DNA from: Elusimicrobiota bacterium
GTDB taxonomy: Bacteria > Elusimicrobiota > Elusimicrobia > UBA1565 > UBA9628
Direction: 5' to 3'
NCBI GenBank assembly: GCA_035533295.1
Contig: DATLUA010000002.1
Location: forward strand, 11,323-75,322
DNA: 64,000 bases
The notes beneath the pieces were generated by a model. It had not been told where the DNA came from. It saw only the letters and a list, made by a program, of their open reading frames with translations, and did no database searches. Both the position numbers and the translations under genes were made by a program. Positions 16,511-57,160 of the stretch are shown piece after piece. Every line of letters begins with the position of its first letter. Position 1 is the first letter of the stretch.

Positions 16511-17671
16511 TTAGGCCCGGGCCAGCGCCCGCTCGAAGTCCGCGAGCAAATCCTCGACCGCTTCCAAGCCCACCGAAACTCGGACAAGCCCGTCCGCGAT
16601 GCGAAGCTTTCTCCGCTCGGCCGCGGGCATGCCGGAATGCGAGGTGGTCGCGGGCCGCGTGACGAGCGACTCCACGCCCCCAAAGCTCGGCGCCACGACC
16701 GGCAGACGCACGGCGCGCATGAAGCGCTCGGCCTTCTTCAAGCCCCCTTTGAGCTCGAAGCTCAGCAGCCCGCCGAAGCCGTCGAAGAGTTCGCGCGCCC
16801 TTTGGTGCCGCGGGTGGCTGCGCAGCCCCGGGTAATTGACTCCGGCCACTTTAGGATGCCGCTCCAAAAACCGCGCGACTTCAATGGCGCTGGCGTTTTG
16901 GCGGACCATCCTCACTGCCAGCGTCTTGATGCCGCGTTCGAGCAGGAAGCACGCGTGCGGGTCGAGCGAGCCGCCCAGGTGATTGAGCCGATGCGTGGCC
17001 CTCTCGACCCAGGATCTGCGGCCGATGATCGCTCCAGCCACGATATCCGAATGGCCGTTCAAGTATTTGGTGGCGCTGTGCAGCGATAAATCAAAGCCCC
17101 ATTGCGCGGGCCTGAAGTTCATCGGGCTCGCCGAGGTGTTGTCGATGAGCGAGACGATGCCGCGCTCCTTGGCGAAGCGCGCGACGGCTTCCAAGTCCCC
17201 CACCTGCAGCAGCGGATTGGTCATGGTCTCGACGTAGATGGCCTTGGTGTTGCGCTTGATTTTCTTTTTCCACGAGGCCGGTTTGTCCGCATCGATGAAG
17301 TCGCAGGAGACGCCGAAGGACTTCAAATCCCTCGCGATGAACTCGTGCGTGCCGCCGTAAAGGCAGTCCTGCGCGAGCAGGTGATCTCCCGCCGAGAGCA
17401 CGGTCAAAAGCGCGGTGGAGATGGCGGCCATGCCGCTGCCGGCCACCAAGGCGTCCTGCGCGCCCTCCAAGGCCGCGAGCTTGCGGTGCAGGGCCTGGTG
17501 ATTGGGCGTGTTGTTGAGGCGGATGTACTTGAGATCGTGGTAGCTGGTCTCGCCGAAATACTCGTAGATGGAGGACTGGAAGACCGGCATGCTCACCGCG
17601 CCCAAAATCCTGGGGTGGATGTTCCCCGCGTGAATGACCTCGGTCTCCAAACGCCTGGAATTTTTCGCCAT
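16511..17671 (-). CDS. PLP-dependent Cys/Met-metabolism enzyme (cystathionine gamma-synthase / O-acylhomoserine sulfhydrylase / Met gamma-lyase family)
   Basis: MAKNSRRLETEVIHAG.. and the HSATKYLNGHSD lysine motif. The track ORF carries a 117-aa Arg/Gly-rich N-terminal extension judged non-coding, so the start was set at ATG 17671. Confidence 0.85.
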   Translation of the reverse strand: MAKNSRRLETEVIHAGNIHPRILGAVSMPVFQSSIYEYFGETSYHDLKYIRLNNTPNHQALHRKLAALEGAQDALVAGSGMAAISTALLTVLSAGDHLLAQDCLYGGTHEFIARDLKSFGVSCDFIDADKPASWKKKIKRNTKAIYVETMTNPLLQVGDLEAVARFAKERGIVSLIDNTSASPMNFRPAQWGFDLSLHSATKYLNGHSDIVAGAIIGRRSWVERATHRLNHLGGSLDPHACFLLERGIKTLAVRMVRQNASAIEVARFLERHPKVAGVNYPGLRSHPRHQRARELFDGFGGLLSFELKGGLKKAERFMRAVRLPVVAPSFGGVESLVTRPATTSHSGMPAAERRKLRIADGLVRVSVGLEAVEDLLADFERALARA

Positions 17672-18168
17672 GGAATGACTCCTGTGTCCGCTCGTCAAGC
17701 CAGTCTTAGAGGCTGGCGGGGACGGCAGACCCGAAATCAAGATTTCCAGATCCCGCCCTTTGTTCCGCCGCCCGGCAAAATCGATTTTATCCCTTCGTTT
17801 CGGGCAGAGCGCCCCTTCGCCCTGAGTCGGATTGCCAATGGCGAGTGGGTGATTCAGGACCTTTCGGCCCCGCCGCCTGAGGCAGTCAGCCCGGCCGCCA
17901 GCGCACCCGCGCCGCAGGGCAAGGCTCTGGCCCCTCTGATTGACGCCATGCTCTTGGCAGGGAATATGACCATGCGCGGCATCGTCCGCGAGCTCCAACG
18001 CAAGGCGAGTTCCGTCTGCCACGGCCGCGATCTTCGGGCCAACGTTCGCGCCAGAATATACTGGCTAAAAAAGAGAGGCTGTAGCCCGTCGTTGCTTTTA
18101 TCCCTATAAATCCATCGCAAATATACCATGCGGATGATGGCTGGGCCTAGTAATTAACGATTTATGAT

Positions 18169-18197
18169 TTGCAAATCGTGAATCTATGCTGTATACT
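18169..18197 (+). promoter_or_regulatory. Sigma70-like promoter: TTGCAA, 17-nt spacer, TATACT
   Basis: AT-rich divergent intergenic region. The -10 element lies 6 nt upstream of ATG 18204, which suggests a leaderless transcript. Confidence 0.4.
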
Positions 18198-18203
18198 GTG
18201 GGC

Positions 18204-18743
18204 ATGAGACCCCAGCATGGCATCAAGCCGCAGGATGTGCTCATTCTGCTCAAGATCGCGTGTTGGCGAGACCGAGAATGGCGCTCGGTTGATCTTGCCC
18301 ATGAACTTCAGATCTCCCCGGCCGAGGTGAGCATGGCCCTCGAGCGGGCGCGGCGCGTGGGCTTTCTCGACCCCAAAAAGCGCAGCGTGATGAAGGCGCC
18401 ATTTCTGGAGTTTTTGCTCCATGCGGTCAAGTACGTCTTTCCCGCGGAGCCCGGTCCCCTCTGTCGCGGCATTCCCACGGCCCACTCCGCGCCGCCGTTG
18501 GCCAAGCGCATCGTGTCCGAGGAAAGCGATCAATACGTTTGGCCGCATGACGACGGCAAGGTGCGGGGTCAGGCTATCGCGCCGTTGTATGAGACGGCAC
18601 CCGCCGCCGCGCGGCAGGATGAGAAGCTTTATGAGTTCCTATCGCTCATAGACGCTCTCCGCGTCGGCCGCGCCAGGGAGCGAAACATCGCGGCCCAGGA
18701 AATCGAAAATCGGCTTAGCGAGCTCGTCCTTGAGAACAAGTAA
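18204..18743 (+). CDS. Winged-helix DNA-binding protein, possible AbiEi-like antitoxin/regulator
   Basis: N-terminal wHTH-like region (DVLILLKIACWRDREWRSVDLAHELQISPAEVSMALERARRVGFLD). Overlaps the downstream nucleotidyltransferase gene by 14 nt. An alternative start is at 18186. Confidence 0.45.
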   Translation: MRPQHGIKPQDVLILLKIACWRDREWRSVDLAHELQISPAEVSMALERARRVGFLDPKKRSVMKAPFLEFLLHAVKYVFPAEPGPLCRGIPTAHSAPPLAKRIVSEESDQYVWPHDDGKVRGQAIAPLYETAPAAARQDEKLYEFLSLIDALRVGRARERNIAAQEIENRLSELVLENK

Positions 18744-19422
18744 GAACCTGGACATGCTGTCCGTGGTCGCCCGCGGCCTTCAGGACCTCAAGGATCAAGT
18801 GGTCTTCGTCGGCGGTGCCACGGTCGATTTGTACGTCACCGATCCCGGAGGAGAACCGTTGCGCCCCACCGATGACGTGGACTGCGTGATCGGGATCACA
18901 AGCCGCGTCGCTTACCGGACTCTGGAGGAAAAACTCAGAGCCCTGAAATTTTCCCATCCGCTCGATGAGGCTCGGCCACCCATTTGCCGCTGGAAATTCT
19001 CCGGGATCTCCGTGGACGTAATGCCCACCGACGAAGGCGTATTGGGTTTTAGCAACCGCTGGTATCCCGACGGCATCGCGCACGCCGAAAGTCGGGTTCT
19101 GCCGGACGGCCAAACCGTCGCGATTTTCTCTCTTCCCTACTTCCTGGCCTCCAAGATCGAAGCATTCCTGGGGCGGGGCAAAGATGACTTTTACGGTAGT
19201 TCGGATCTGGAGGACATCGTGACGCTGATTGACCGGGCCGAAGACCTTCGCGAGAAGGTTCTGGCCGCGCCGAAGGATGTCCAGAACTATATCGGAGAGA
19301 AGTTCGGCTCTTTCCTGGGCAATGACCTGTTCGTGCAGAGCGTGGCCGGGCATCTCGACGCCGGTGCAGGGCCAGGCCGGGTGGAACGGGTTCTGGGACT
19401 CATGCGCGAGCTCGCAAAATGA
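18730..19422 (+). CDS. Nucleotidyltransferase, AbiEii/DUF1814-like (candidate type IV TA or abortive-infection toxin)
   Basis: VVFVGGATVDLYVTDPGGEPLRPTDDVDCVI matches the GG.A..L....R.T.D.D NTase signature of the AbiEii family. Confidence 0.5.
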   Translation: MRTSKNLDMLSVVARGLQDLKDQVVFVGGATVDLYVTDPGGEPLRPTDDVDCVIGITSRVAYRTLEEKLRALKFSHPLDEARPPICRWKFSGISVDVMPTDEGVLGFSNRWYPDGIAHAESRVLPDGQTVAIFSLPYFLASKIEAFLGRGKDDFYGSSDLEDIVTLIDRAEDLREKVLAAPKDVQNYIGEKFGSFLGNDLFVQSVAGHLDAGAGPGRVERVLGLMRELAK

Positions 19423-19443
19423 TTTCCACCGCTCCCGGTACTT

Positions 19444-19818
19444 TTAACGGGACACCGCCGCCTTGGTCCAGTCGAACACGATGGCCGGGTTGGTCGGATT
19501 GTAGGCCGCGTCGCACATCGAGGCGTTGATGAACGCGGTGTGCTCGTTCTTCGTGATGCCGTAGCCTTCATGCACGTGGCCGAAGATATGGTACTTCGGC
19601 TTGATCCTCTCCACGGCGGCCAGGAGGTCCGCGCAGCCGACGCGCTCTGTCTTTCCGTAGGAGGGGATGTCGTCGCCATGCCCGAGAGGCGGGCCATGAG
19701 TCAGAAGGATAGGGGAGCCGACGTCCGTCATGTCGCCGGCGTGGATGAAGACGTCGCCCTCCGGAATGGGCAGCCGATCGTGCATCGTGTGGGTGTCCGA
19801 GACGCAAACGAACCGCAT
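19444..19818 (-). CDS. Small metallophosphoesterase (calcineurin-like)
   Basis: MRFVCVSDTH.., ..VFIHAGDMT.., ..GHVHE motifs. Confidence 0.65.
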   Translation of the reverse strand: MRFVCVSDTHTMHDRLPIPEGDVFIHAGDMTDVGSPILLTHGPPLGHGDDIPSYGKTERVGCADLLAAVERIKPKYHIFGHVHEGYGITKNEHTAFINASMCDAAYNPTNPAIVFDWTKAAVSR

Positions 19819-19832
19819 AATCTGCCGCCGTT

Positions 19833-21269
19833 CTACCGTCTGTCCTTGATAATGTTCATCTTCCGGAAAAATCCGCTTCTGTGCTTGCGCTCGAACTCCT
19901 CGGGGCTCATGGATTCAAGGAGCCCCAGGTTGTTGCGGGCCACCTCATAATCCGGGTTTAACTTCAAGGCGGCCTTCAGCATGGCCAGGGCCTCCTCGCG
20001 ATTTCCCGACATTACGTAAGCCGTGGCCATGTTGCCCAAGACCCGATACGCCTCCGGGTGGTCCTTGACCATGGGATAGACTTTTTGGAGAAGATCGAGA
20101 GCGGTCTGAGTCTGCCCAGCCTTGAGATGATCCGTGGCCTGGTTGACCAAGCCCATCGCCTGAGACTCCGCTTCCCCTGCGGCCATTGGCGTCACTTGAA
20201 TCTCGTAGCCAACTTCCTGTTGAGGGTTCCCAAGAGCACGGCGCTCCTCTAGAATGGCTTGCCGAGGGCTCTTGCCGCCCAGTTCCTTCTGCGGCGCGGC
20301 AAGCCACTCACGCGTGATCTCACGCGCCTTGGAAGTAAAATCACCGCTTTCCATTTCTTCATTAGTGAGGCGGCCCATGACGAATCGCTGCAGGTCCGCG
20401 AGGAGCGAGCGTTCCTTGGGTCCGGGCTTGGGTGTGTCTTCGGCCAGCGTTAGATTCCACATGGCTTGAAGAAGGGGAGCGACTTCCTTGGCCGCCTCCG
20501 CGGATGGGGCCTTGCCGAGGACGACCTTAGAAAGCGGATGCTCCTTGGCGGCCTTCTTATGGGCCGCGAGGATGTCTTCCTCGATCTGAGCGACAGTGAT
20601 ATCCGCCACGCGCCAGCGTTGCAGGAGCGAAGCGAGCCGCGCGCGGACGCGGTGCAGGCCCTCCTTCTCCCATTCCACCGGAGGGACGAACAATCCAAGG
20701 ACGAACCGGTGGCTGATGGGTTCGTCCTTAAGTGCTTCGCCGCGAGACTGCATGAGACGCTCCATGTGGTAGCCGGCCTCGTCAGGAAGCCGCGCGACAA
20801 AACTTGACAACGCCCAGTGGTCCTGAAAGCGGAAGAGCCGGGCAATCAGGAACTGACCCTCCCTTCCATCCTCCGATCCCTTCGCGTCGAGGACACGACA
20901 GGTTTCCCCGCGCGGGATGGGCGTCAAGTCCAGCCACTCGCCCGCCTTGCGCGCGGTCAGTTTGAATATGCCGAAGCGACTGTCTTCTTTGAAGCCTTGA
21001 TAGGCGGCCGCCTCGGTCTTGTCGAAGCGTCGCTGGTTGGTCTTGATGAATAGATCGAGAGGAGTCAAGCCGCACCGCGTGAGCCGGCGCTCAAGGAGGA
21101 ACCAATCCTTAAACAGCGCGCCGATCAGATCGCGGCCGTCTTTTGGAATACGGCTCGGGCTGATGAAGAACTCCTCCATGGCCTCCGGCTCCTCGACCGC
21201 GACCATGCCCTCGCGTTGAGCCCAGCCCGTGAATTTATTGAAGTACTTATGCGCCTTGGACTGCGTCAT
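19833..21269 (-). CDS. Hypothetical protein with C-terminal TPR repeats
   Basis: 478-aa ORF. The C-terminal 100 aa show TPR-like A..Y..LG / ALKLNPDY motifs; no other recognised domain. Confidence 0.55.
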   Translation of the reverse strand: MTQSKAHKYFNKFTGWAQREGMVAVEEPEAMEEFFISPSRIPKDGRDLIGALFKDWFLLERRLTRCGLTPLDLFIKTNQRRFDKTEAAAYQGFKEDSRFGIFKLTARKAGEWLDLTPIPRGETCRVLDAKGSEDGREGQFLIARLFRFQDHWALSSFVARLPDEAGYHMERLMQSRGEALKDEPISHRFVLGLFVPPVEWEKEGLHRVRARLASLLQRWRVADITVAQIEEDILAAHKKAAKEHPLSKVVLGKAPSAEAAKEVAPLLQAMWNLTLAEDTPKPGPKERSLLADLQRFVMGRLTNEEMESGDFTSKAREITREWLAAPQKELGGKSPRQAILEERRALGNPQQEVGYEIQVTPMAAGEAESQAMGLVNQATDHLKAGQTQTALDLLQKVYPMVKDHPEAYRVLGNMATAYVMSGNREEALAMLKAALKLNPDYEVARNNLGLLESMSPEEFERKHRSGFFRKMNIIKDRR

Positions 21270-21286
21270 GTCCTGCTTCCCATGGC

Positions 21287-22363
21287 CTATGCCTTGCCGC
21301 GTTTTTTTCGCGGACCGGGACGTTTCTTGCGCTCGGTCTCCAGCGCTTTGGCCGATGTCCGGAGATCCTCAAGATACCGGGCCGCGGCAGAGGCCTCCGC
21401 TTCCAGCCGCCGGCGCTCGGCGAAGGCGTCGTATTGCTCGTTGGCCCAGGAAAGCACCTCTTCATGGGTCACTTTGCCGGAATCGGGAAGCACCGGCAGC
21501 TCCGTCTGCTGGAGAAACTGGTCCAGGAACGCGGTCCAGTCCCGCATCTGGATGTCCTGGCGGCGCTGGGCCCGGAACTCGGCCTGATCCAGGAACATGA
21601 CCACGATCCGGTTGAGCGTGTCGATTTCCTTCTCCGTCAGATAGTTCTTCGCCGTCGCCACGTCGCGCTTGAGCACCCGGCTGCCGCTCCAAGATGTCAG
21701 GCCCATGTTGGCTTTGCCGGCGTCGGCTCTCCTGCGGACGATCTCGGCAGCGGTCATGCCGGCCGCCGCGTAGTGCATCTTGTTCTGCATCGCGGCGAAG
21801 AAGGCCTGCGTCTCCTCCTGCCCCTCGACGTAGTCCATGGCCATGGCGAATATCTCCCGGATGCGCTGATAAACGCGGGCTTCGCTGGCCCGTATCTCGC
21901 GGATGCGGACCAGCAGTTCGTCAAAATAGTCGGCCAGCCTATCGTGGCCCTTGAGACGCTCGTCATCCAAGGTGAAGCCCTTGATGAGGTACTCCCGCAG
22001 CCGTTCGGTCGCCCATTGCCGGAACTGCACCCCGCGCGGCGAGCGGACCCGATAGCCGACGGCTAGGATCATGTCCAGGTTATAGAGCTTGATTTGGCGC
22101 CGGACGGCGCGCCCGCCTTCCTGGCGAACTTGTAAGTGTTCCTTACAAGTTGCCGCCTCCGACAGCTCGCCGTCCTTGTAGATTTCTCCGATGTGGATGG
22201 TGACGTTCTGCGGCGTCGTTTGGAACAGCTCCGCCATGAGCGCCTGGGACAGCCAAACCGTGCCGCCCTCCAGCCTGACCTGGATATGGCTCTGCCCATC
22301 CTCGGCCTGGTAGATGATGATTTCCGACTTGGCCGGTTTCTCCGGCGAGTTTTCCGTCATCAT
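21287..22363 (-). CDS. RhuM-family protein (virulence-associated / mobile-element-associated)
   Basis: IIIYQAEDGQSHIQVRLEGGTVWLSQALMAELFQTT..YNLDMILAVGYRVRSPRGVQFRQWATERLREYLIKGF matches the RhuM family closely. The start was set at MMTEN, with ATGA overlap to the upstream stop. Confidence 0.8.
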   Translation of the reverse strand: MMTENSPEKPAKSEIIIYQAEDGQSHIQVRLEGGTVWLSQALMAELFQTTPQNVTIHIGEIYKDGELSEAATCKEHLQVRQEGGRAVRRQIKLYNLDMILAVGYRVRSPRGVQFRQWATERLREYLIKGFTLDDERLKGHDRLADYFDELLVRIREIRASEARVYQRIREIFAMAMDYVEGQEETQAFFAAMQNKMHYAAAGMTAAEIVRRRADAGKANMGLTSWSGSRVLKRDVATAKNYLTEKEIDTLNRIVVMFLDQAEFRAQRRQDIQMRDWTAFLDQFLQQTELPVLPDSGKVTHEEVLSWANEQYDAFAERRRLEAEASAAARYLEDLRTSAKALETERKKRPGPRKKRGKA

Positions 22364-22980
22364 TTTTTGCGGCCAAGGGCCTTGTTGGCCGCGGCCAGAT
22401 CGAAGGCCTTCGGGTCGTAATCCCCGCCGACCCAATCGACCATCTCGTCGTGCTGCTCGTGCTTGGGATCGCGCAGCGCGGCGAGCAAATCCTCGCAGCC
22501 GCCGATGCCGCCGCAGTCCTCCGGGGGGCAAGCCCCTGCGCCGGCCAAACATTCGGGCCCTTTGAATGCGCCCGTGGCCGGCGTGATGGACTCCACCTTG
22601 ATTTCATGGCCCCAGCTGTCGCCCATGTCGTACTCGTAGAAAAACTTCGCGCCAGTTTTGCGCGCAATGTCCCAAAGCACGAACTTCCGCTCGTCCTCGA
22701 CGTCGTCCCAGTCCGGCGTCCGAGGGGCGATGCGCGTCTTGCCGACATGGAACATGTGCAGATGGCAATCGCTCCAGCCCATGGCGTACTGGATGACCCG
22801 ATGGAGGCTGCCCAGGCTCGCGTCTCCCGGCACGAGGACCCGCCGCCAGACCGGCGGCTCCAGGCCGACGAGAGTGATCTTGAGCTGGTAGACCTTGGCC
22901 GCGGCCTGGTCCAGCTCTTTTTTGACCTCATTGGGGACCCAGCCCCTATTCTTAAGTTGGTCAAGAGACTTTGTATTCAT
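22360..22980 (-). CDS. Plasmid pRiA4b ORF-3-like family protein
   Basis: VYQLKITLVGLEPPVWRRVLVPGDASLGSLHRVIQYAMGWSDCHLHMF..YDMGDSWGHEIKVE signature. Confidence 0.7.
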   Translation of the reverse strand: MNTKSLDQLKNRGWVPNEVKKELDQAAAKVYQLKITLVGLEPPVWRRVLVPGDASLGSLHRVIQYAMGWSDCHLHMFHVGKTRIAPRTPDWDDVEDERKFVLWDIARKTGAKFFYEYDMGDSWGHEIKVESITPATGAFKGPECLAGAGACPPEDCGGIGGCEDLLAALRDPKHEQHDEMVDWVGGDYDPKAFDLAAANKALGRKK

Positions 22981-22996
22981 AGGCTGGATTCTCCAC

Positions 22997-23083
22997 CCAA
23001 AAACCGAAACGGCGCGTTTTATCGCACCATTTCGGCTTTTGGAACGCCGGGTTCAACAATTAAGAGCTGGCGGGGCCGAGGGA
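22997..23083. repeat. Direct repeat copy A (about 85% identical to 25425..25515): partial tRNA-Asp 3' end (about 17 nt) plus degenerate terminator hairpin; att-like island boundary
   Basis: 42-nt exact core ccgaaacggcgcgttttatcgcaccatttcggcttttggaac shared with copy B; a tggcggggYcgaSgg tail matches the tRNA-Asp 3' end. Confidence 0.75.
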
Positions 23084-23348
23084 ATCGATTTACCGACGGC
23101 CTAAATCCCGCCCCTGTTCCAGCGCCAGAAAAAGCATATATTTTCCAAGCTTTCGCGCTCAACTGGTCCGTGACGTGGGGCTGCATCATGAACGGGGAGC
23201 GCGTGGTGTTGGAGACTGCCCCTTCGCCGGACCGAAAAACCATGGACTTCGACATCCCGGAGTTCAAATGCCGTCGTGCTATCGAAAGAACGGCGGGAGC
23301 AATACCAATAAGTCTCTGCCCTGACGGGGCGGCGCTCGGAGAATTTCT

Positions 23349-23690
23349 CTAAGCGGCAGCCAGCCGTTGAATGAGCGGCAAGGCCTGTTTGGCTTTGCTT
23401 TCGGCGATGCAGAACGGGACGAACTTCAGACCGAGAGCTTCCGCCATCTTCGCCACGCGATCCATGGACGCGGCCCGTAAGCCGCCGCCTTTAAGATCGC
23501 GGGATATCGCGCTCTTTTGAGTTCCCATGGCCTTCGCGAGGTCGGAGTAACTCCAATGCTTTTTTTCCAAGGCGTTGAGCATCTGGACTTCCAGCTTGAA
23601 GAGCTCGTAGCTCTCCTCATGACGCTTGCGGTAGGCGGGGTCCTCCATTTTCCGCGCCAAGAGCCCCTTGGCTTTCCCTTTAGTTTTCAT
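23349..23690 (-). CDS. XRE-type HTH antitoxin (HigA-like)
   Basis: ..WSYSDLAKAMGTQKSAISRDLKGGG..ASMDRVAKMAEALGLKF HTH. Lies downstream of the toxin gene and overlaps it by 11 nt. Confidence 0.6.
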   Translation of the reverse strand: MKTKGKAKGLLARKMEDPAYRKRHEESYELFKLEVQMLNALEKKHWSYSDLAKAMGTQKSAISRDLKGGGLRAASMDRVAKMAEALGLKFVPFCIAESKAKQALPLIQRLAAA

Positions 23691-24102
23691 AGTAGGTTCC
23701 CTCCTGGACGCGCTTCAAATAGTCGTGCCTATAACGCACCGCGACTTTCAAATGCTCCAAATCGGCCTTGGTCATCTGTTGAGAATGCTTGTGATAGGCG
23801 TTGGTGATGATCACCTTGGCCCCGGCCGTCGTGAAGTTGAAAAATCTCTCGTCCCGCGGCTTCAGCGCATAAATCTTGTTGGGGCGGTCCTCGATCCGGT
23901 AAAGCGTTTTCGGAAGCAAGGAGCCCGGCTTCGTTTCGCACAAGTATTGGATCATGTCGTCGAACCGGTCCTGGTCCATTTCGGCCAATCCAGCGTAATA
24001 TTCCCGAGCCGGCATTTTGCTCTCTATCGTGTAGAACCACTCCGCCGTCAAATAACGCCCCGGATGGATCAGGACGTCATCGTAGTCGGGATATTTGGCC
24101 AT
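23680..24102 (-). CDS. HigB/Gp49-like RelE-superfamily toxin (COG4679-like)
   Basis: ..LYRIEDRPNKIYALKPRDERFFNFTTAGAKVIITNAYHKHSQQMTKADLEHLKVA resembles the ..LLhgF.KKtqkTP..EI..A C-terminal signature. The start was set at MAKYPDYDD. Confidence 0.55.
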   Translation of the reverse strand: MAKYPDYDDVLIHPGRYLTAEWFYTIESKMPAREYYAGLAEMDQDRFDDMIQYLCETKPGSLLPKTLYRIEDRPNKIYALKPRDERFFNFTTAGAKVIITNAYHKHSQQMTKADLEHLKVAVRYRHDYLKRVQEGTYYEN

Positions 24103-24270
24103 TTCCGCTACTCGTAAGTTAACATATAAGTGAACGACTGTCAAGAGCCAACCGTTGCCCCAGAAAATCAACCTTGTCCACGACGTCCAGGGGCGGCGAA
24201 AGGCTAGGAAGGCCGCCGGTCGCGTTTTTGATGGGCGTACTTGGGATGAGAGGCCCCAGTTGGATTCGGC

Positions 24271-24951
24271 CTAACCATTCAAATCCAAGGCAGGTTTTAA
24301 GTTCCCCACCCGGAGATCGTTTAGAGCGCCCATGCGTTGTTTATGATCCTCCGCACTGAGAAAATCTTCTCTTAGAAGTAGGCGCAGAAAGTCTTCTACA
24401 GGGGTATCGTTCTTCCTGTTGTTGCATTGGCGGCAGGCCGCCACGACGTTTTTATAGCTGTTATTGCCTTCGGGTCTTGAAACTACATGTTCGATGACGT
24501 AGTTTTGAGGATTCAGCTTCCTAAGACAGTAGAAGCACTGATCATTTTCACGACTCAAAATAGCCTGACGATTTTGCGGGAGAAAAAAATCTATTTCCTC
24601 CAATACCGGTGGATTGCTTGCCGGCGATTTCGCCAGGATAACACCAGGTATTTCTGCGGGCAGCTTTAATCGAATTTTTCTTCCTTCGCGGGTTGAATCC
24701 AGAATTTCTATACAGCCCTTGGATTGCAGGGATTGCAGTTTTTCATAAGCAGTACTCTCAGACATTGGCTTGCCCTTTTCGCCAATTCCGCATGCCATAC
24801 GTTTTCTGGCCGATTTGAATCCGATTACAACTTCATCCAGACCAATCAGGCAGCTATGACGAAATATGTACAGATAAATTGCCTGCTCATAGGTGTCGAG
24901 CCTGGGGGCCAGAAAATCCTGAAACTCCTCAAGTATCTTTTTCAGTTCCAT
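24271..24951 (-). CDS. HNH endonuclease
   Basis: CFYCLRKL..NYVIEHVVSRPEGNNSYKNVVAACRQCNNRKNDTP HNH motif. It sits in markedly lower-GC DNA. Confidence 0.75.
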   Translation of the reverse strand: MELKKILEEFQDFLAPRLDTYEQAIYLYIFRHSCLIGLDEVVIGFKSARKRMACGIGEKGKPMSESTAYEKLQSLQSKGCIEILDSTREGRKIRLKLPAEIPGVILAKSPASNPPVLEEIDFFLPQNRQAILSRENDQCFYCLRKLNPQNYVIEHVVSRPEGNNSYKNVVAACRQCNNRKNDTPVEDFLRLLLREDFLSAEDHKQRMGALNDLRVGNLKPALDLNG

Positions 24952-25072
24952 CCGTTAATGATAACATTTTATAAAACTTCCCTTAGAAGGTCGAACGCTC
25001 GACGGATCGCTTCTTAATTCCGCTTGATGTCTTGCCTGAGAGAAGGTAATTCCTCTATAAAGGAGGTGAAAC

Positions 25073-25366
25073 ATGGGCACGCGAAAAATTGCGATCAGCC
25101 TCGATATTCCTATCTGTTGGAATCTGATCGCCAACGGCGAGAGGATCATCGAGCAAGCGGGACCGGACTCGGTCGACGTCGAGGTTCGCGAAGGTTCCAT
25201 CGACGGCGAGTCATGGCTTCAAGCGCTGTCGCGGCTATTGGATGAAGCGGAGGCGGAACTACGTCGCGTCGGGCGTCGCAGGCGTCGAGCAGTAGCAGAT
25301 TTCGATTCCCGTCGTTCACTCAACCGACGGCATCAAAAAACCACCGTGAAGCGAACAGGGCAGTAG
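25073..25366 (+). CDS. Hypothetical small protein (97 aa)
   Basis: Strong RBS AAGGAGGTG 5 nt upstream of the ATG (aaggaggtgaaacATG). No recognisable domain. Confidence 0.4.
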   Translation: MGTRKIAISLDIPICWNLIANGERIIEQAGPDSVDVEVREGSIDGESWLQALSRLLDEAEAELRRVGRRRRRAVADFDSRRSLNRRHQKTTVKRTGQ

Positions 25367-25424
25367 AGTAGACGAAAAACTGGGTTCGAATCGACATGCG
25401 CCGCGAAAATCACCGTCGTAGATG

Positions 25425-25515
25425 CCAAAAAAGCCGAAACGGCGCGTTTTATCGCACCATTTCGGCTTTTGGAACAACGGATTAAACTTATAAGAGCTGG
25501 CGGGGTCGACGGGAT
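25425..25515. repeat. Direct repeat copy B: tRNA-Asp 3' end plus its rho-independent terminator (AAAAGCCGAAA..TTTCGGCTTTTTT read on the minus strand)
   Basis: See copy A. On the minus strand the hairpin is followed by a T-run immediately downstream of the tRNA. Confidence 0.75.
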
Positions 25516-25575
25516 TTGAACCCGCGATCTCTGCCTTGACAGGGCAGCGTGTTAGGCCAGCTACACCACGACCCC
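25498..25575 (-). tRNA. tRNA-Asp (anticodon GTC), CCA encoded
   Basis: Reverse complement GGGGTCGTGGTGTAGCTGGCCTAACACGCTGCCCTGTCAAGGCAGAGATCGCGGGTTCAAATCCCGTCGACCCCGCCA folds with anticodon loop CTGTCAA. Confidence 0.85.
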
Positions 25576-25620
25576 AAAATTCGGGAAGCGCGCTATTCTA
25601 ACATTTTTCCTTTTTGATTG

Positions 25621-27144
25621 TCAGCGCGCGCCAGCCCCGCCCGGCGCCGCGAGGTATATTTTTCCATCCGGCTCCCGCACCAGAATCGGGGCGTAGAGCC
25701 CCAGGAGTTTTCGGTTCCACCAAGCGCCGGTTTTCCTCTTTTCGGCGGGCGACGAGAACCAGTAGCGCCAGACGACGGCGCGCACCGCGATCGGCGGCCC
25801 ATCCGCGAACGGATTGGCCTTAAAAAGATACAGCACGTCTTCATCCTGCTCCAGCAAGGCCTTTTCCACGCGCAGGACCCACGAGTATTGGCGCCAGCTT
25901 CCCAGCGAGGCAAACCACAAGTTCCAATCGAAGCGCGGCTGATAAGGAGCGTAAAGCCCCGGCGGTGTATTCACGTTCTGCGGCTTGTAGCGGAAGGGGT
26001 AGGGAGTCCAAGTCTTGCCGTCGCGCGCGCCTTGGAACTCGATTTCGTAGCGGGCCGTGGTCATCACCGCGAAAAGCCCGTAAGAATTGGCCACGCGCAG
26101 CGGCCCCAAGGCCTCGGCGGGCACAAGCGCCCAGGAGGGCAGGCGCGGAGCCAAAAGAGGAAACAAGACCAGCGTCGCGTAGAAAATCCAGGCCTGGGCA
26201 AAGCGCTTCAAGACCATCCCGGAACGCGCGTTCCATCCCGGCTCCGCCGCCGACTCGCCCGTCTTGGCCGCGCGCCACCCCAAGGACTTGAAGAACTGGT
26301 CATCCAAAAGCAGCACGCTCAACGAAAGCAGCATATAATTAAGGAAGGTGTAGTTGGCCGTCAGAAGGATGCCGACCTGGAACGCCGCCGTGACAAAAAA
26401 GCAGGCCAGCCGCAAGGGTCGGCCCAGAAAGGCGGCCCACACGAATACGTTTTCCATGATCAGCGTGGCCAGCGCCGTCCCTTCGTGAAAGCGGCGCGGC
26501 AGATACTGCTGGGCGTAATAGCCGATCCACGTGGGCAGCGGGCCGTTCTCGTAGTAATGCTCCATCGCGGTCAGGCGCCGCCACTGCGGATCGCCGGAGG
26601 CGAGCTTGGCCACGCCGGACTCGAAGTAAATGCGGAACCACTCCCACACGAGCAGAAACCGGCCGACCCCGTCGGGCGGATCGTTTTCCCCCAAGCCGGG
26701 CAGGAATCCCGCCGGAGCGAAAAGGAAGGACAGCAGACCCGCCTCCAGAAGCATGCCGTCCGATTGATAGGAGGAAAAATCGCCCGCGGCCGTGGCCAGC
26801 GACATATACATAACCTCGCAGACCAGCAGCATGGCCCTGGGCCAGACGTTCAAAAAAAGCAGCAGCGAAGCGGCAAGCCCGCAGCCGACCAGCACGGTCA
26901 AGGCCGCGTTGCCGCTGCCGATCCAAAGCAGGGACGGAACCTCCCAAATCCCGCGCCAGCCCGCATGCGATGCGGCCACGGCGCGCAGAAGCTCCTGCGC
27001 CGGCAGAATGCCGCGCGGACCCATCAAGCCCCGGACTTGAAACGCCCAAGAATAGAACGCCGAGAAGAAAATCGCCCCCATCGCCCGCATAAATATCCAC
27101 CGGGCGCAAAAATACGTGGCTTGGCCGCTCTTATCTTTTGACAT
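25621..27144 (-). CDS. Lipase maturation factor (LMF1-like) family polytopic membrane protein
   Basis: ..NTPPGLYAPYQPRFDWNLWFASLGSWRQYSWV..FKANPFADGPP..WRYWFSSPAEKRKTGAWWNRK matches the LMF1 C-terminal signature. Multiple N-terminal TM helices. Confidence 0.7.
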   Translation of the reverse strand: MSKDKSGQATYFCARWIFMRAMGAIFFSAFYSWAFQVRGLMGPRGILPAQELLRAVAASHAGWRGIWEVPSLLWIGSGNAALTVLVGCGLAASLLLFLNVWPRAMLLVCEVMYMSLATAAGDFSSYQSDGMLLEAGLLSFLFAPAGFLPGLGENDPPDGVGRFLLVWEWFRIYFESGVAKLASGDPQWRRLTAMEHYYENGPLPTWIGYYAQQYLPRRFHEGTALATLIMENVFVWAAFLGRPLRLACFFVTAAFQVGILLTANYTFLNYMLLSLSVLLLDDQFFKSLGWRAAKTGESAAEPGWNARSGMVLKRFAQAWIFYATLVLFPLLAPRLPSWALVPAEALGPLRVANSYGLFAVMTTARYEIEFQGARDGKTWTPYPFRYKPQNVNTPPGLYAPYQPRFDWNLWFASLGSWRQYSWVLRVEKALLEQDEDVLYLFKANPFADGPPIAVRAVVWRYWFSSPAEKRKTGAWWNRKLLGLYAPILVREPDGKIYLAAPGGAGAR

Positions 27145-42951: not shown

Positions 42952-43907
42952 CGGGCCTCCTCTTCCTTGACCCAGAAGCGGTGGCCGGTGCGGTGCATGA
43001 ACACGTCCTCCAAGGTCGGCTTCGACAAACTCACGGAGCGAATGAGGCCCGGGAAGGCTTCCACGATTTGAGGGATGAAGGAGTGTCCGTTTTCGCGTTC
43101 AAGCCGCAGGACTCCGTCCACCTGCGCCGGAGTAACGCCGAAGCGCTCCTTGATGCGCGCGCCCAAGGCGGCCGGATCCTCGGCTCCGATGGCGATGACG
43201 TCTCCGCCGATTTCGGCCTTCAAGGCGCCGGGAGTTCCCTGCGCGGCCAAGCGGCCCTCATCGAGCAGAATTAGGCGCGAGCAGTTTTCCGCCTCGTCCA
43301 TGTAGTGGGTCGTCAGCAAAATCGTCGAACTCCGCGCCGCACGCAAATCTTTCAGGTGTTCCCACAAATCGCGCCGCGCGCCCGGGTCAAGGCCGGTGGA
43401 CGGCTCATCTAGAAGAATGAGATCAGGCCGGTGCAGAAGGCTCTTGGCCAACTCCACGCGCCTTTTTTGACCGCCGGACAAGGCGCCCGCGTAATCATCG
43501 GCGCGAGAAGCCAAACCGTAGCGCTCGAGCCCCTCGGACACGCGCTTGGAGAGCTCCGCGCCGTGGACGCCGTAGAGGCGGCCCTGCTGCTCCATGTTTT
43601 CCCGCACGGTCAGTTTGGCGTCAAGACTGGGACTCTGGAAGACCACGCCCAGGCGGCGGCGGACGGCGCTCGCCTCTTTGAGCACGTCCAGCCCAAAGAC
43701 TTCCGCCGCTCCGGAAGCCGGCCTCAAGGCGGTCGATAAAATCTTAAAGAGCGTGCTCTTGCCGCCGCCGTTGGGTCCCAAGACTCCAAAAATTTCGCCC
43801 GCCGCGACATCAAAGGAGACGTTCTTCAAAGCCTCACGCGCCGGAGATTTTTTGCGCGCGGGATAGGCGTGGCCGACGGCTTTAAGCGCGACCGCCGGAG
43901 CCGTCAT
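42948..43907 (-). CDS. ABC transporter ATP-binding protein
   Basis: GVLGPNGGGKSTL Walker A, LSGGQKRRVELAKSL signature, ILLDEPSTGLD Walker B. The start was set at MTAPAVALK (ATGA overlap with the upstream stop). Confidence 0.85.
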   Translation of the reverse strand: MTAPAVALKAVGHAYPARKKSPAREALKNVSFDVAAGEIFGVLGPNGGGKSTLFKILSTALRPASGAAEVFGLDVLKEASAVRRRLGVVFQSPSLDAKLTVRENMEQQGRLYGVHGAELSKRVSEGLERYGLASRADDYAGALSGGQKRRVELAKSLLHRPDLILLDEPSTGLDPGARRDLWEHLKDLRAARSSTILLTTHYMDEAENCSRLILLDEGRLAAQGTPGALKAEIGGDVIAIGAEDPAALGARIKERFGVTPAQVDGVLRLERENGHSFIPQIVEAFPGLIRSVSLSKPTLEDVFMHRTGHRFWVKEEEAR

Positions 43908-44473
43908 TTGGCCGCCCTCCACAAAGTCTCGGTTTTGCCCGACTGATGATTGGCCCAGCGCGCCGCGGTAAAAAGATAGTCCGAAAGCCGGTTCAAGTAA
44001 ACGACGACCTCGGTGGGAACGGCTTCGGCCGCAGCCAAGGCCACCGCCGCGCGCTCGGCCCTGCGGCAGACGGCCCGAGACCAATGCAGGCCCGCGCCCG
44101 CTTTGCCGCCGCCGGGGAGGATAAAGTTGGACAGAGGCTCCAAGCCCGCGGTCATCGAATCGATGGCGGCTTCCATGCGTTTGATCGCTTCAGGTTCCAG
44201 CGGCGGCGTCCGGGAAGAAGAGCTTTTCTTGATGTCCGGCGGGGAAGCGAGGATGGCGCCGATGACGAAGAGTTCCTGCTGGATTTTGCGCAGTTCGCCG
44301 CGCAGGTCGCGCAGGTTTTCCTGCGGCTCGATTTCCGCCAGGACCGCGCCCAACGCGCAGTTGAGCTCGTCCACGTCGCCGTAGGCCGCTACGCGCCGGT
44401 CGTTCTTGGGCACCCTTGCGCCGCCCCAAAGCCCGGTTTCGCCCTTGTCTCCGGTCCTTGTGTAAATCTTCAC
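43904..44473 (-). CDS. ATP:cob(I)alamin adenosyltransferase, PduO-type
   Basis: MKIYTRTGDKGETGL.. is a canonical PduO/MMAB N-terminus. Confidence 0.85.
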   Translation of the reverse strand: MKIYTRTGDKGETGLWGGARVPKNDRRVAAYGDVDELNCALGAVLAEIEPQENLRDLRGELRKIQQELFVIGAILASPPDIKKSSSSRTPPLEPEAIKRMEAAIDSMTAGLEPLSNFILPGGGKAGAGLHWSRAVCRRAERAAVALAAAEAVPTEVVVYLNRLSDYLFTAARWANHQSGKTETLWRAAK

Positions 44474-44524
44474 TAAAATAATTTTGGCAAATTAAGAAGG
44501 GCCTGAAAAGACCCCGGAGGATTT

Positions 44525-46372
44525 TTATTCCCGGCCCAGATGCCGCGCCAGGAATTTCTCGCAGGCTTCGTAGAACTTAAGGCGGTTCTCGGGCCGGGCA
44601 AAACCGTGTCCCTCATCGGGAAAGAGCAGATACTCCACCTCCTTGCCCCTGGCGCGCAGCGCGCCGACGATGGCTTCCGATTCCGCGGCCTTGACCCGCG
44701 GATCGTTGGCGCCCTGCGCGATGAGCATGGGCGCCTGGATTTTATCGGCGAAAAAAAGCGGCGAGCGCGACTCCAGGAATTCCGGCTCCGTTTCCAGGCT
44801 GCCCACCCGCAGATCGAAAACGCGACGCAAGGGCTCCCAATAGGGAGGAACGGACTTAATGAGCGTCGCCAGGTTGGAAGGGCCTACGATGTCCACCGCG
44901 CAGCGATAGAGATTGGGCGTGAACGCGGCGCCGCACAAGGCCGCGTAGCCGCCGTAGGAAGCGCCGTAAATCGCGACACGGTTTTTATCCGCTATCCCTT
45001 CACGAATGGCCCAGAACACCGCGTCGGTCAAGTCGTCCTGCATGCGCGCGCCCCACTCCCGGTCGCCCGCGTGGAGAAAGCGCTTGCCGAAGCCCGCGGA
45101 GCCTCGGAAGTTGACCTGCAGGACAGCGTAGCCCTGGTTAGCGAGCCATTGGATTTCTGGGTGCAATCCCCAGGAATCGCGCGCCCAGGGCCCGCCGTGA
45201 ACATGAAGGACGAGCGGAAGCTTGTGGGGCTCCGCGCCCACCGGGACCGTAAGATAAGCCGTCAGCTTCAAGCCGTCCCGCGCCGCAATTTCCACAGGTC
45301 GCATGGGTGACAAAGCGTAGGATTCCAACGCCGGCCGCGTGCTGAAAAGAAAGGCCGTCGCACGCGTTGCGCGGTCGTATCGGTAATAGGACGCCGGGCG
45401 GCGATCGCTGATGCAGGAGACAATCCAGAGTTGATCCGCGTCATCCCGAGAAGCGAGATGAACGTCTCCTTCAAGCGCCTTGGCCAGAGCCTCGAAATCG
45501 GAGCCGACGTCACCGCCGATGGGCCGCCAAACGAGGCGCTCTTTTTCAAAGGCGCAGGCCTGAACGTTGAATTTGATGGGATGCACGAGAATCCCGGCGA
45601 CGTCCGCTCCCGCGCAGGAGGCCAGAAGCTGCCTCGACTTCCCGTCCAGGCTCATCTCCCACAATTGCGTGGCGTCCGAATCGAGGCTCGATTCCACGTA
45701 GAGCGCGTCGTTGGAGGGCGCAAAGCCGTGCGCGCCGACGGCTTCGTCCGGCCCCCACGATAAGAACGTGCGCCAAGGAGTCCCCGCGCCGTCCTTGACG
45801 CGCAACTCCCCGCCGCCGTCCGGCTTCATGGCGCGGGCGCAGCGCAGGTCAAAGCGGATGTCCGGCAGCCAGCCGATGATATCGCCCGGGTTCTGCTCGA
45901 CAAGGTCCATGGCGCCGGAAGCCACGTTGAGCCTGTAGGCATCGTGAACGCGCGCGTCGCGGCGATTAAGGCCGATGAGCGCGTCCTGGGGAAAATCAGG
46001 GTGGGTGCCGATAATCTGCGCTTGGACGCCGATAAAAGGCGTCAAGTCGGCGCCCATGCCGCCCTGCCAATCCGCGCGGTAGAGATGCCAGTTCTCGTCC
46101 CCGTCCTTGTCCTGGACGTAAAGGAGAGTCCGGCTGTCCCCGCTCCAAAAATAGCTGCGGATTCCGCGGCCGCGATCGCGCGTCACGGGCTTGGCGGCCC
46201 CCTCAAGAGGCCCCGCCCAAATATTCAAGACGCCCTCGTCCTCGGCTAAAAAGGCCAGCTTGGTCCCGTCCGGGGAAATTCGCGGCGAGGCTTTCTCGGG
46301 ATTGCCGAAAATAAGCTCGCGGGGAATCCGGCGGGGTTGTGACGGCTTCGCTAACTCCGGCGTCCGGCTCAT
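44525..46372 (-). CDS. S9 family serine peptidase (prolyl oligopeptidase / acylaminoacyl peptidase-like) with N-terminal beta-propeller
   Basis: ..VHGGPWARDSWG.., ..AIYGASYGGYAAL.. (GxSxGG), and a C-terminal ..DPRV..H catalytic region. Confidence 0.85.
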   Translation of the reverse strand: MSRTPELAKPSQPRRIPRELIFGNPEKASPRISPDGTKLAFLAEDEGVLNIWAGPLEGAAKPVTRDRGRGIRSYFWSGDSRTLLYVQDKDGDENWHLYRADWQGGMGADLTPFIGVQAQIIGTHPDFPQDALIGLNRRDARVHDAYRLNVASGAMDLVEQNPGDIIGWLPDIRFDLRCARAMKPDGGGELRVKDGAGTPWRTFLSWGPDEAVGAHGFAPSNDALYVESSLDSDATQLWEMSLDGKSRQLLASCAGADVAGILVHPIKFNVQACAFEKERLVWRPIGGDVGSDFEALAKALEGDVHLASRDDADQLWIVSCISDRRPASYYRYDRATRATAFLFSTRPALESYALSPMRPVEIAARDGLKLTAYLTVPVGAEPHKLPLVLHVHGGPWARDSWGLHPEIQWLANQGYAVLQVNFRGSAGFGKRFLHAGDREWGARMQDDLTDAVFWAIREGIADKNRVAIYGASYGGYAALCGAAFTPNLYRCAVDIVGPSNLATLIKSVPPYWEPLRRVFDLRVGSLETEPEFLESRSPLFFADKIQAPMLIAQGANDPRVKAAESEAIVGALRARGKEVEYLLFPDEGHGFARPENRLKFYEACEKFLARHLGRE

Positions 46373-46434
46373 TTGCCCTTTTCGGCCGCAACTGATAAAA
46401 TACGCTTCGCCGGACGCTGAAGCCTGGATTTCGT

Positions 46435-46511
46435 GGCGCGTTCGTCTAGCGGCCTAGGACATCGCCCTCTCAAGGCGGAGATCACGGGTTCAAATCCCGT
46501 ACGCGCCACCA
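46435..46511 (+). tRNA. tRNA-Glu (anticodon CTC), CCA encoded
   Basis: GGCGCGTTCGTCTAGCGGCCTAGGACATCGCCCTCTCAAGGCGGAGATCACGGGTTCAAATCCCGTACGCGCCACCA. The anticodon loop CTCTCAA has T33 and C34-T35-C36. Confidence 0.75.
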
Positions 46512-46525
46512 GTTTTTCCTCCACG

Positions 46526-56285: not shown

Positions 56286-56320
56286 GTAACCGGTATCCTT
56301 GTCTAGTCCAAAATATAACG

Positions 56321-56342
56321 CGGACGCGCGACGGCGCGTCCG
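56321..56342. promoter_or_regulatory. Perfect palindrome CGGACGCGC-GACG-GCGCGTCCG (9-bp arms) 36 nt upstream of the giant operon start; candidate operator
   Basis: Seen directly. It lies in an AT-richer 170-nt intergenic region, with a TATATA-like element upstream and an AAGGATA RBS downstream on the minus strand. Confidence 0.45.
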
Positions 56343-56491
56343 AACCAACGTTATTCTGATATATAGAAGCTTCCTTAAGTAGGGTCGATGGTTCCAGCCC
56401 AAGGCCGGCAATGGGCCTAAGGTTCGGTGGGACTTAAGACCTACGTGAAGATGGGTTTACGACGGCTGCGAAGGGTCCGCAGACGCGGTGA

Positions 56492-56854
56492 TTAGAGACG
56501 GCCGATTTTCCCTGTGACGACCGTGCAGGTCTTGGTGTAGAGGCCCAGCAGATAGGCCCGGACTTTGACGTCGGCCTTCACGTCGTAGAGAACGTCGCTG
56601 GCGTCGCCCTTGAGCGCCGAAGAGACCGCGCCCGCGTAGCCGCCGTCCCCCCAGCTCACGAGAAACAGCACGCTTCGATTGCAGGATTGGCCGGAGACGA
56701 TGGTATCCGTCGGGCTGGCCTTGACGTCGCTGGGCGAGGCGGAGCGGTAGGAATACGGCTCCTCGATGCCCGTATAAAGGATGCCGCAACCGCCAAGGAA
56801 GGCGGCGGCCAAGGCCAGCGTCGCCGCCTTCCCCGCGATTGCTCGGACTGACAA
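56492..56854 (-). CDS. Small lipoprotein (TRL-like?)
   Basis: Signal peptide with LGGC lipobox. C-terminal ..AYLLGLYTKTCTVVTGKIG. Confidence 0.45.
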   Translation of the reverse strand: MSVRAIAGKAATLALAAAFLGGCGILYTGIEEPYSYRSASPSDVKASPTDTIVSGQSCNRSVLFLVSWGDGGYAGAVSSALKGDASDVLYDVKADVKVRAYLLGLYTKTCTVVTGKIGRL

Positions 56855-56858
56855 GGAA

Positions 56859-57131: not shown

Positions 57132-57160
57132 TGATGACGAAAGTCCGTGCCGGGCCTCGC

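Follow-up and report, generated by a model that had tools for sequence, protein, structure and literature searches.

An integrase-less accessory island of two tandem units at the 3' end of a tRNA-Asp gene in an Elusimicrobiota bacterium

How does foreign DNA come to lie against the 3' end of a tRNA gene when no integrase accompanies it? This question is raised by a 64-kb stretch of an Elusimicrobiota bacterium (64,000 nucleotides (nt) of assembly GCA_035533295.1, contig DATLUA010000002.1, positions 11,323 to 75,322, here called the window and used for all coordinates), in which a 2.4-kb islet of low GC content, bounded by direct repeats, abuts the gene for tRNA-Asp(GTC). A first-pass annotation had read the islet as a lone tRNA-targeting element decayed to its cargo. 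We find a tandem island of 7.8 kb (about 17714-25497), in which the islet (unit A, about 23068-25497) occupies the inner position and the outer part (unit B, ~17714-23067) begins with a third tRNA-end relic at 17714. On balance, and with somewhat better than even confidence, we favor the view that both are members of an islet family that inserts at tRNA-Asp, lacks an integrase, combines conserved ends with exchangeable cargo, and is moved by a recombinase supplied in trans. This islet family has so far been found only in Elusimicrobiota genomes recovered from metagenomes. Below, repeat copies #1 and #2 are the right (tRNA-proximal) and left copies, respectively, and #3 is the relic at 17714; P denotes a family of small proteins, of which P3 is the intact member in the window and P1 and P2 are degenerate far-end relics; and L-numbers denote fetched loci (n = 103).

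The low-GC segment is foreign DNA inserted at the end of the tRNA-Asp gene. The only 1-kb windows that fall more than 2 standard deviations below the mean GC of the 64 kb lie within 23001-25750 (0.475-0.555 versus 0.625 ± 0.031), and the highest tetranucleotide deviation is found in the same interval (z up to 5.1), so that the islet described at first reading holds up as the only strong outlier in both measures. Its GC content is uneven, being lowest in the HNH gene (0.455) and higher in HigB (0.525), HigA (0.57) and P3 (0.578), and that of unit B is host-like (0.60-0.63). The tRNA gene itself was called correctly, as both ARAGORN and Rfam agree (Table 1), and its leader sequence is identical between the window and the relative L085.

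The 87-nt direct repeat is likewise real, including the exact 42-nt core (23004-23045 and 25434-25475), and its copies are identical at 76 of 87 positions (87%); its coordinates had been given 2 nt off (they are 22999-23085 and 25429-25515), and the tRNA part measures 18 and not 17 nt. With up to three mismatches allowed, no third copy of either the tRNA-end part or the hairpin part exists in the window, and shuffled sequences give 0. Fragments of the tRNA 3' end are found on the strand of the tRNA at 23068-23085 (15/18 identical) and at 17714-17724 (the core); integration targeted the tRNA-Asp gene, whose last 11-18 nt make up the repeated core. The idea that the left copy is a decayed full-length tRNA was dropped, there being no similarity past 18 nt and no match in Rfam or ARAGORN.

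The remainder of the repeat is a hairpin and a 25-nt spacer. The terminator proposed to follow the tRNA was borne out, in that the hairpin, read in the sense of the tRNA, folds with -32.6 kcal/mol in the right copy and -39 kcal/mol in the left (z about -5.5 to -5.9) and has a stem of 18-21 bp followed by a U run; a simple terminator scan did not list it. Because there is an A run on its opposite side, it can terminate transcription in both directions. The structure is kept across five sequences with two compensatory pairs, and such compensatory variation is as expected of a terminator and argues against a role as a recombination site. Among the fetched loci, the sequence pattern of the hairpin occurs only at P and tRNA-Asp sites.

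The first proposal, an insertion at the 3' end of the tRNA marked by the repeats, agrees with the closest relative, L085 (91% amino acid (aa) identity in the LMF1-like protein), where colinearity with the window runs from 31710 to 25495 (89.5% nt identity over 6.3 kb) and is lost 3 nt past the tRNA. There, 84 nt and an aspartokinase gene follow, and the tRNA-Asp locus contains no hairpin, no P and no island. We infer that the insertion was a site-specific recombination event at this end of the tRNA. The L085 tRNA end and its first 12 flanking nt match relic #3 at 19 of 23 positions (score 15 versus 7.5 ± 1.2), which fits relic #3 being the displaced native end.

Relic #3 (TGGCGGGGACGGC… at 17714) was found from a weak seed at 17712-17721; the core Cys_Met_Meta_PP gene has its start codon 42 nt away from it. 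When 17706-17884 is laid ungapped on 23060-23238, anchored on TGG, 90 of 179 positions agree over a background of 47 ± 6; this is the best non-self match among about 128,000 positions, the next best reaching 76. The homology between #2 and #3 comprises the tRNA-end core and then ~150 nt into the island side, and does not extend into the hairpin side. Both carry the peptide I-x-NGE-(R/W)-V in the same frame, with its Asn codon 123 nt after TGG. By Smith-Waterman comparison, P2 and P3 score 56 against 23.5 ± 4, and P1 and P2 score 69 against 27 ± 5, and P1 and P2 are probably degenerate paralogs of the P N-terminus. The accessory region is, in other words, two tandem units, each of which opens with a tRNA core, an arm and a P2-type relic.

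The left repeat had been taken for the displaced native tRNA end with its native terminator, and this is probably not what it is. Apart from the lack of a terminator at L085, the acceptor-strand variants differ: #3 reads CGTCCCC, close to the native CGACCCC; #1 reads CGACCCC; and #2 reads CGGCCCC next to a spacer of another type. This spacer is that of L087, the sole match of a metagenome scan, whose tRNA-Asp, spacer and hairpin agree with the left copy at 84 of 87 positions (spacer 25/25) and with the right copy at 79 of 87, and whose chromosomal context differs from that of the window. To judge from these sequences, the left repeat more probably represents the arm by which the older unit B adjoined the tRNA.

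These observations bear directly on the reading of the islet as a single 2.4-kb tRNA-targeting element that integrated once and later lost its integrase and mobility genes. Such an element would account for the correctly oriented direct repeats, for the compositional outlier between them and for the missing integrase. It would not account for a native locus in L085 without such a terminator, for a left copy with a non-native acceptor variant and an L087-identical spacer, or for a third relic and a second unit farther out, and an integrase is likewise missing from other family members (3.5-6.5 kb), which yet keep both end modules. We therefore consider this explanation very improbable.

Those other members are the islets at L101 and L102, which together with units A and B make four units in three genomes. 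At L101, where P is ~40% identical, CTGGCGGGGACGGCGAGG stands 6 kb from P, after a different hairpin and a 114-aa gene, and the NGE Asn codon follows TGG by exactly 123 nt, as in #2 and #3. Compared ungapped with the whole window, this L101 module finds as its two best matches #2 (85/152, z 8.5) and #3 (73/152, z 6.3). Its cargo consists of small open reading frames (ORFs), DUF2188, XRE and ImmA proteins, two N6/N4 methyltransferases and a PLD-type nuclease. L102, whose right flank is syntenic with that of the window (GT21, acid phosphatase, acyl-CoA dehydrogenase, IleRS and others), has a P2-type relic 3.4 kb from P that is 76-82% identical in nt to window positions 23161-23283 (L102 6522-6668), and between this relic and P it carries an ORF6N fragment, an HTH_17 protein, an AAA ATPase, an insertion sequence (IS) fragment and an FMN reductase.

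The L101 module also bears on whether any site-specific event took place at all. One could imagine that the copy of the tRNA end and terminator arose by local duplication or illegitimate recombination and that the foreign DNA, as HNH and toxin-antitoxin cassettes, landed separately; the 42-nt perfect core does lie in the hairpin and not in the tRNA, and HigBA appears to be independently mobile. However, this leaves unexplained why core, arm and P2-type relic recur at L101 with the same 123-nt spacing next to unrelated cargo, and why colinearity with L085 breaks 3 nt past the tRNA 3' end, and of all the explanations weighed here it strikes us as the least credible.

The family is defined by two end modules. 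The far-end module contains the final ~11 nt of the tRNA with its CCA (TGGCGGGGNCG, the shared core), an arm of conserved length and a degenerate P2-type ORF. The tRNA-end module consists of the P gene, the bidirectional hairpin and the spacer, and in our reading it rebuilds the tRNA 3' end while providing a common terminator for the tRNA and P. The conserved region upstream of P also belongs to it; homology blocks that the window shares with L099 and L102 begin there, at about 25009-25010. The arrangement in which P and tRNA-Asp converge on the hairpin is found in four of the four other loci where DNA downstream of P is visible (L099, L100, L101 and L102); the L100 contig ends at the hairpin start, the L102 hairpin is short and different, and L087 shows the hairpin and tRNA-Asp on a contig that ends where P would lie. 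A U5-G68 wobble pair in the L099 tRNA was considered as evidence of recombination and set aside, as it is also an ordinary intermediate of compensatory change.

P3 is a real gene, since it has a ribosome-binding site and a homolog (P0122, 61% identical) from which it differs mainly at third codon positions (25/17/47 mismatches by codon position); the small ORF noted at first reading is thus upheld. It is listed at NCBI as a hypothetical protein of an Elusimicrobiota metagenome-assembled genome. The family is rare, with 25 cluster representatives among 1.84 billion proteins; among viral contigs no P homolog was found, and the sole match to the hairpin pattern there is a chance half-site. The predicted structure of P3 (pLDDT, the predicted local distance difference test, 55.8) was too poor for a fold search. 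Past the P3 stop, another frame of 25350-25421 (+) reads SRVDEKLGSNRHAPRKSPS and then reaches a stop just before the hairpin. The same peptide is the in-frame C-terminus of the family members P0249 and P0246 and, more loosely, of P0243, so P3 appears to have lost ~20 residues by frameshift, unless the stretch is conserved as DNA for another reason. Two further ideas about this region were rejected: an integrase gene split across the attachment (att) site as in SSV, because the P3 frame is broken before P2, with stops at 25364 and 25419; and a fourth att-like site upstream of P3, which looked plausible by eye and by MAFFT and was not significant (score 7 versus 7.4 ± 1.2).

How, then, could the island have been assembled? 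In the mechanism that we favor, unit B would have inserted first, displacing the native end, which would survive as relic #3, and bringing an L087-type end with its spacer and hairpin. In a second step, unit A would have inserted beside the tRNA and pushed the unit B end outward, where it would now form the left repeat (CGGCCCC), and would itself have supplied the present tRNA end (CGACCCC), spacer, hairpin and P3. According to this model, the 87-nt repeat exists because unit A integrated beside the tRNA-proximal arm brought earlier by unit B. This would explain the extension of the repeat by 69 nt past the tRNA, the greater similarity of the left copy to the sequence of another organism than to its neighbor copy, and the contrast between the outlying composition of unit A and the host-like one of unit B. 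The acceptor-strand variants of #1, #2 and #3 also fit the proposed order of events, in which unit A is the later arrival. Between the two end modules the cargo is exchangeable, being HigBA and HNH in unit A, candidate defense proteins detected by PADLOC in unit B, and restriction-modification with ImmA/XRE or an AAA ATPase with HTH_17 in the relatives. The recombinase would be supplied in trans, by a helper element or by the host.

Several observations weigh against this mechanism. The full architecture is present in three genomes only, and the match to the P-family profile is weak for both P2 (E 0.14) and P1 (E 1.7). L102 has no detectable tRNA-end relic, and at L088, where P comes after a core AdoHcyase gene, no significant tRNA relic separates the two. 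L085 does provide a tRNA-Asp gene without the island, as had been hoped of a relative, but beyond 12 nt the flank of relic #3 (the Cys_Met gene) is unlike that of L085 (aspartokinase). Within the same population we found neither an excised circle nor an empty site: all contigs with identical flank or islet proteins carry the full island in the same arrangement at 99.97-100% identity. (Logan contigs break inside the 42-nt core.) The analysis turned up no recombinase for these units either. Finally, the block of P, hairpin and tRNA adjoins the same right-flank genes in the window and in L102, and it could thus be an old, vertically inherited landmark and not a mobile part.

This last point leads to the main rival, according to which a single ancient integration became fixed in the clade, P, the hairpin and the P2-type relic are by now chromosomal landmarks, and no dedicated recombinase operates today; cargo would turn over by homologous recombination, with the ends and the tRNA serving as homology arms, in addition to local insertions and deletions. 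Besides the shared block, this reading is favored by the lack of an integrase in all four units (0/4), by the fact that the end modules of the window and L102 are more conserved (P2-type 76-82%, tRNA block 91%) than the core genes (about 65-75%), and by the behavior of HigBA as a self-contained cassette in unrelated contexts, once beside a DDE transposase. On the other hand, the L085 tRNA-Asp is clean and has none of the landmarks; the far-end module occurs twice in tandem in the window, each time running from the tRNA core at the same spacing, as repeated site-specific integration predicts; and the closer agreement of copy #2 with L087 (84/87) than that of copy #1 (79/87) points to recent import of an end module. 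We regard cassette exchange between old landmarks as unlikely, although it is the alternative to be taken most seriously.

The search for an integrase was negative throughout. Pfam gene tables of 12360-37090, taken from identical contigs in two ENA samples, list no integrase, recombinase or transposase, which leaves the surrounding 12 kb without an integrase, and direct Pfam scans of the window ORFs revealed no integrase, the ORFs near the other two tRNA genes belonging to housekeeping families only; the first-pass annotation was right on this count. It had also pointed to the gap upstream of higB as a place where a fragment might survive, and this suggestion failed: the 168 nt at 24103-24270 hold no integrase match, DUF5131 being the only Pfam hit (E 0.12). 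That hit concerns a 39-aa ORF at 24155-24271 (+), ending in ...VFDGRTWDERP..., which weakly resembles the last 23 positions of DUF5131 (phage Gp37/Gp68) and may be a relic of an earlier phage-type gene, namely 23 aa of its C-terminus. The L101 and L102 cargo likewise shows no integrase in Pfam, and none of the three genomes retains a relic of conjugation, relaxase or integrase genes, a finding still compatible with old decay. Known plasmids and phages show similarity to the tRNA itself only. With four units in three genomes that lack an integrase and share the same two end modules, decay of one element to its cargo becomes doubtful, and the lack of an integrase looks like a feature of the family or a very old state and not like a recent loss.

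If the favored mechanism holds, a part might be played by P, which may be an accessory DNA-binding factor. A bolder proposal is that P is the element's own mobility factor, a new recombination directionality or integrase-recruiting protein, and that a minimal set of P, hairpin and tRNA-end core hijacks a recombinase of the host or of a helper. P is a candidate for such a role because no coding sequence other than that of the P family, which is intact on the tRNA side and takes the form of P2-type relics at the opposite end, is conserved across the islets. We hold this proposal to be quite improbable; were it true, it would define a new class of integrase-less, tRNA-targeting hitchhiker that shuttles defense cargo in an uncultured phylum.

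The cargo calls of the first-pass annotation have stood up well. In unit A, the HNH endonuclease is supported by Pfam, it also matches PHROG HNH families, and its matches in the Protein Data Bank (PDB) are confined to the HNH domain. The neighboring toxin falls below the curated cut-off of Pfam Gp49/HigB (PF05973; 15.7 bits versus 23.9, E 0.016), has no NCBIfam match and found no significant match in a profile search against PDB sequences; fold comparison alone worked. Its AlphaFold (AF2) model, built from 34 of the homologs, has a pLDDT of 90.4, and the top Foldseek matches are HigB of S. pneumoniae (6af4, E 6e-7, template modeling (TM) score 0.64-0.79) and HigB1 of M. tuberculosis (7awk, E 7e-4). 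The predicted fold thus confirms a HigB-like toxin, and with its HTH_3 partner the pair is, on the strength of this model, of the HigB/HigA type. As in known HigBA modules, the toxin gene comes first, the HTH-XRE antitoxin gene comes second, the genes overlap (here by 11 nt) and the toxin model superposes on HigB structures; unlike the standard, the toxin family (139 homologs of ~140 aa, many from Elusimicrobiota) is missed by the Pfam cut-off and the model has an extra C-terminal helix. In all three contexts examined (L092, L094-L098), the toxin homolog has a downstream partner gene that encodes 113-134 aa, and in one of the three (L094-L096) Pfam faintly recognizes it as HTH_3. These contexts are polysaccharide loci or other unrelated surroundings, one polysaccharide locus lying beside a DDE transposase, and because the pair recurs in unrelated contexts it can be regarded as a self-contained cassette.

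In unit B, the PDC-M21, PDC-S05 and PDC-S10 genes match PADLOC profiles and are candidate phage-defense proteins by that measure. The PDC-S10 metallophosphoesterase ORF (124 aa) is truncated, since of the 223 profile positions it matches only 139-218, in the C-terminal half. The RhuM (PDC-S05) and PRiA4_ORF3 genes lie directly downstream of the displaced left terminator on the tRNA strand; the PRiA4_ORF3 start codon is 19 nt from the left hairpin copy, and the RhuM start and PRiA4_ORF3 stop overlap by 4 nt (22360-22363).

The surroundings of the locus have changed as well. An LMF1-like gene (25621-27090, -) stands between tRNA-Asp and GT21 in the window and in L085, and in L102 GT21 follows tRNA-Asp directly. 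Its product has one relative at 91% identity and next-best homologs at 52-62%, the named ones mostly from Acidobacteriota, and a contig scan with the LMF1-like flank protein returned Acidobacteriota-type loci only (52-59% identity, no tRNA-Asp synteny); the gene may have been acquired horizontally on the 5' side of the same tRNA. Genes that lie 5-10 kb to the left of the L102 islet (ABC transporter, Cob adenosyltransferase, peptidase S9, tRNA-Glu) stand in the window on the right side of tRNA-Asp, at a distance of 18-33 kb: L102 1-4902 corresponds to window positions 43574-46515 and 56511-58449, which includes the block that matches 56.5-58.4 kb. The tRNA-Asp/P locus thus coincides with a rearrangement breakpoint between the two genomes. 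ORF6N genes lie beside the tRNA-Asp locus in two relatives, on the tRNA 5' side at L099 (1001-1510) and as a fragment abutting the P2-type relic at L102 (6625-6900), and hint that other mobile elements have passed through the site. Beside tRNA-Glu, window positions 46526-56411 (-) are occupied by two neighboring ORFs of very large size (1493 and 1805 aa).

Table 1. Features of the island and its borders, in window coordinates.
Feature	Position	Strand	Basis or content
Cys_Met_Meta_PP gene, first core gene beyond the island	16511..17671	-	Gene table with Pfam, identical contigs
Distal end module, unit B	17714..18109	+	Relic #3 (TGGCGGGGACG...), arm x, P1 relic
PDC-M21A	18186-18743	+	PADLOC E 8e-48
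PDC-M21B	18754-19422	+	PADLOC E 7e-60
PDC-S10 phosphoesterase, truncated	19444-19818	-	PADLOC E 1.5e-42
TPR protein	19833-21269	-	Pfam
RhuM/PDC-S05	21287-22363	-	PADLOC E 2e-139
PRiA4_ORF3	22360-22980	-	Pfam
Left repeat copy #2	22999..23085		Hairpin, spacer, 18-nt tRNA 3' fragment; 84/87 identical to L087 tRNA-Asp region
Distal end module, unit A	23086..23352	+	Arm x 23086-23130 and P2-type relic, NGER motif at 23191
HigA-like HTH (XRE) antitoxin, 113 aa	23349..23690	-	PF01381 (HTH_3) 30.9 bits
HigB-like toxin (predicted), RelE fold, 140 aa	23680..24102	-	AF2 model and Foldseek
Gap upstream of higB, 168 nt	24103..24270		ORFs of 20-61 aa only
HNH endonuclease, 226 aa	24271..24951	-	PF01844 30.1 bits (cut-off 21.4), PF14279 29.4 bits (cut-off 27.5)
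P upstream region, AGGAGG ribosome-binding site	25009..25072	+	Part of proximal end module
P3, 97 aa, conserved small protein	25073..25366	+	Converges on tRNA, hairpin as shared terminator
Right repeat copy #1	25429..25515		Hairpin 25429-25472, 25-nt spacer 25473-25497, last 18 nt of tRNA 25498-25515
tRNA-Asp(GTC)	25498..25575	-	Intact, CCA encoded; ARAGORN and Rfam RF00005, 67.8 bits
tRNA promoter-like site	25595..25624	-	CTGACA-18-TAGAAT, extended TG; consensus scan, 10/12 matches

Islands in tRNA genes are normally recognized and classified via their integrase, and the four Elusimicrobiota units described here, from three uncultured genomes, have none, while carrying toxin-antitoxin, nuclease, restriction-modification and candidate defense genes. 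If they are mobile, they would form a compact family of hitchhikers that integrase-based island finders miss and would offer a handle on the movement of defense genes in a phylum with almost no genetics. If they are not, accessory genes still gather here in a well-defined hotspot whose boundaries are clear.

Elements that encode no integrase and exploit the Xer recombinases of their host are known as integrative mobile elements exploiting Xer (IMEX), among them the CTX phage and the gonococcal genetic island. The units described here resemble them in lacking an integrase of their own and in drawing, as we propose, on a recombinase from elsewhere; they differ in their target, which is the 3' end of tRNA-Asp and not dif. 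The hairpin, with a layout of roughly 11-6-11, was considered as an Xer/dif-like recombination site and rejected in that role, as neither the far end of unit B nor that of L101 has it.

A second point of comparison is provided by cis-mobilizable elements (CIMEs), which are defined as what integrative and conjugative elements (ICEs) or integrative and mobilizable elements (IMEs) decay into, and take part in tandem accretion (Pavlovic et al. 2004; Bellanger et al. 2011; reviewed in PMC5704250). Like CIMEs, the units have att-like flanks in the form of tRNA-core direct repeats, contain no genes for integration or transfer, stand in tandem at a tRNA 3' end and would need the recombinase of another element to move. 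Unlike CIMEs, they show no trace of conjugation or integrase genes in four of four units, they possess conserved small-ORF end modules, and they come from the phylum Elusimicrobiota. To our knowledge, such end modules have no counterpart, including among CIMEs.

A third point of comparison is the tRNA-gene islands collected by Islander, for which an integrase gene is required in each island (Hudson, Lau and Williams 2015, PMC4383910). In common with these, the island regenerates an intact tRNA, leaves a displaced 3' fragment in the same orientation at its far end, forms a tandem array and is atypical in composition; a tRNA gene with its fragment, absence from a close relative (L085) and atypical composition are all found here, and of the features by which Islander recognizes an island only the integrase is missing. 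The island further differs in that its core spans only the last 11-18 nt of the tRNA and in that it brings with it a terminator hairpin and a convergent small gene, so that the proximal module would represent an element that supplies the tRNA gene with its terminator.

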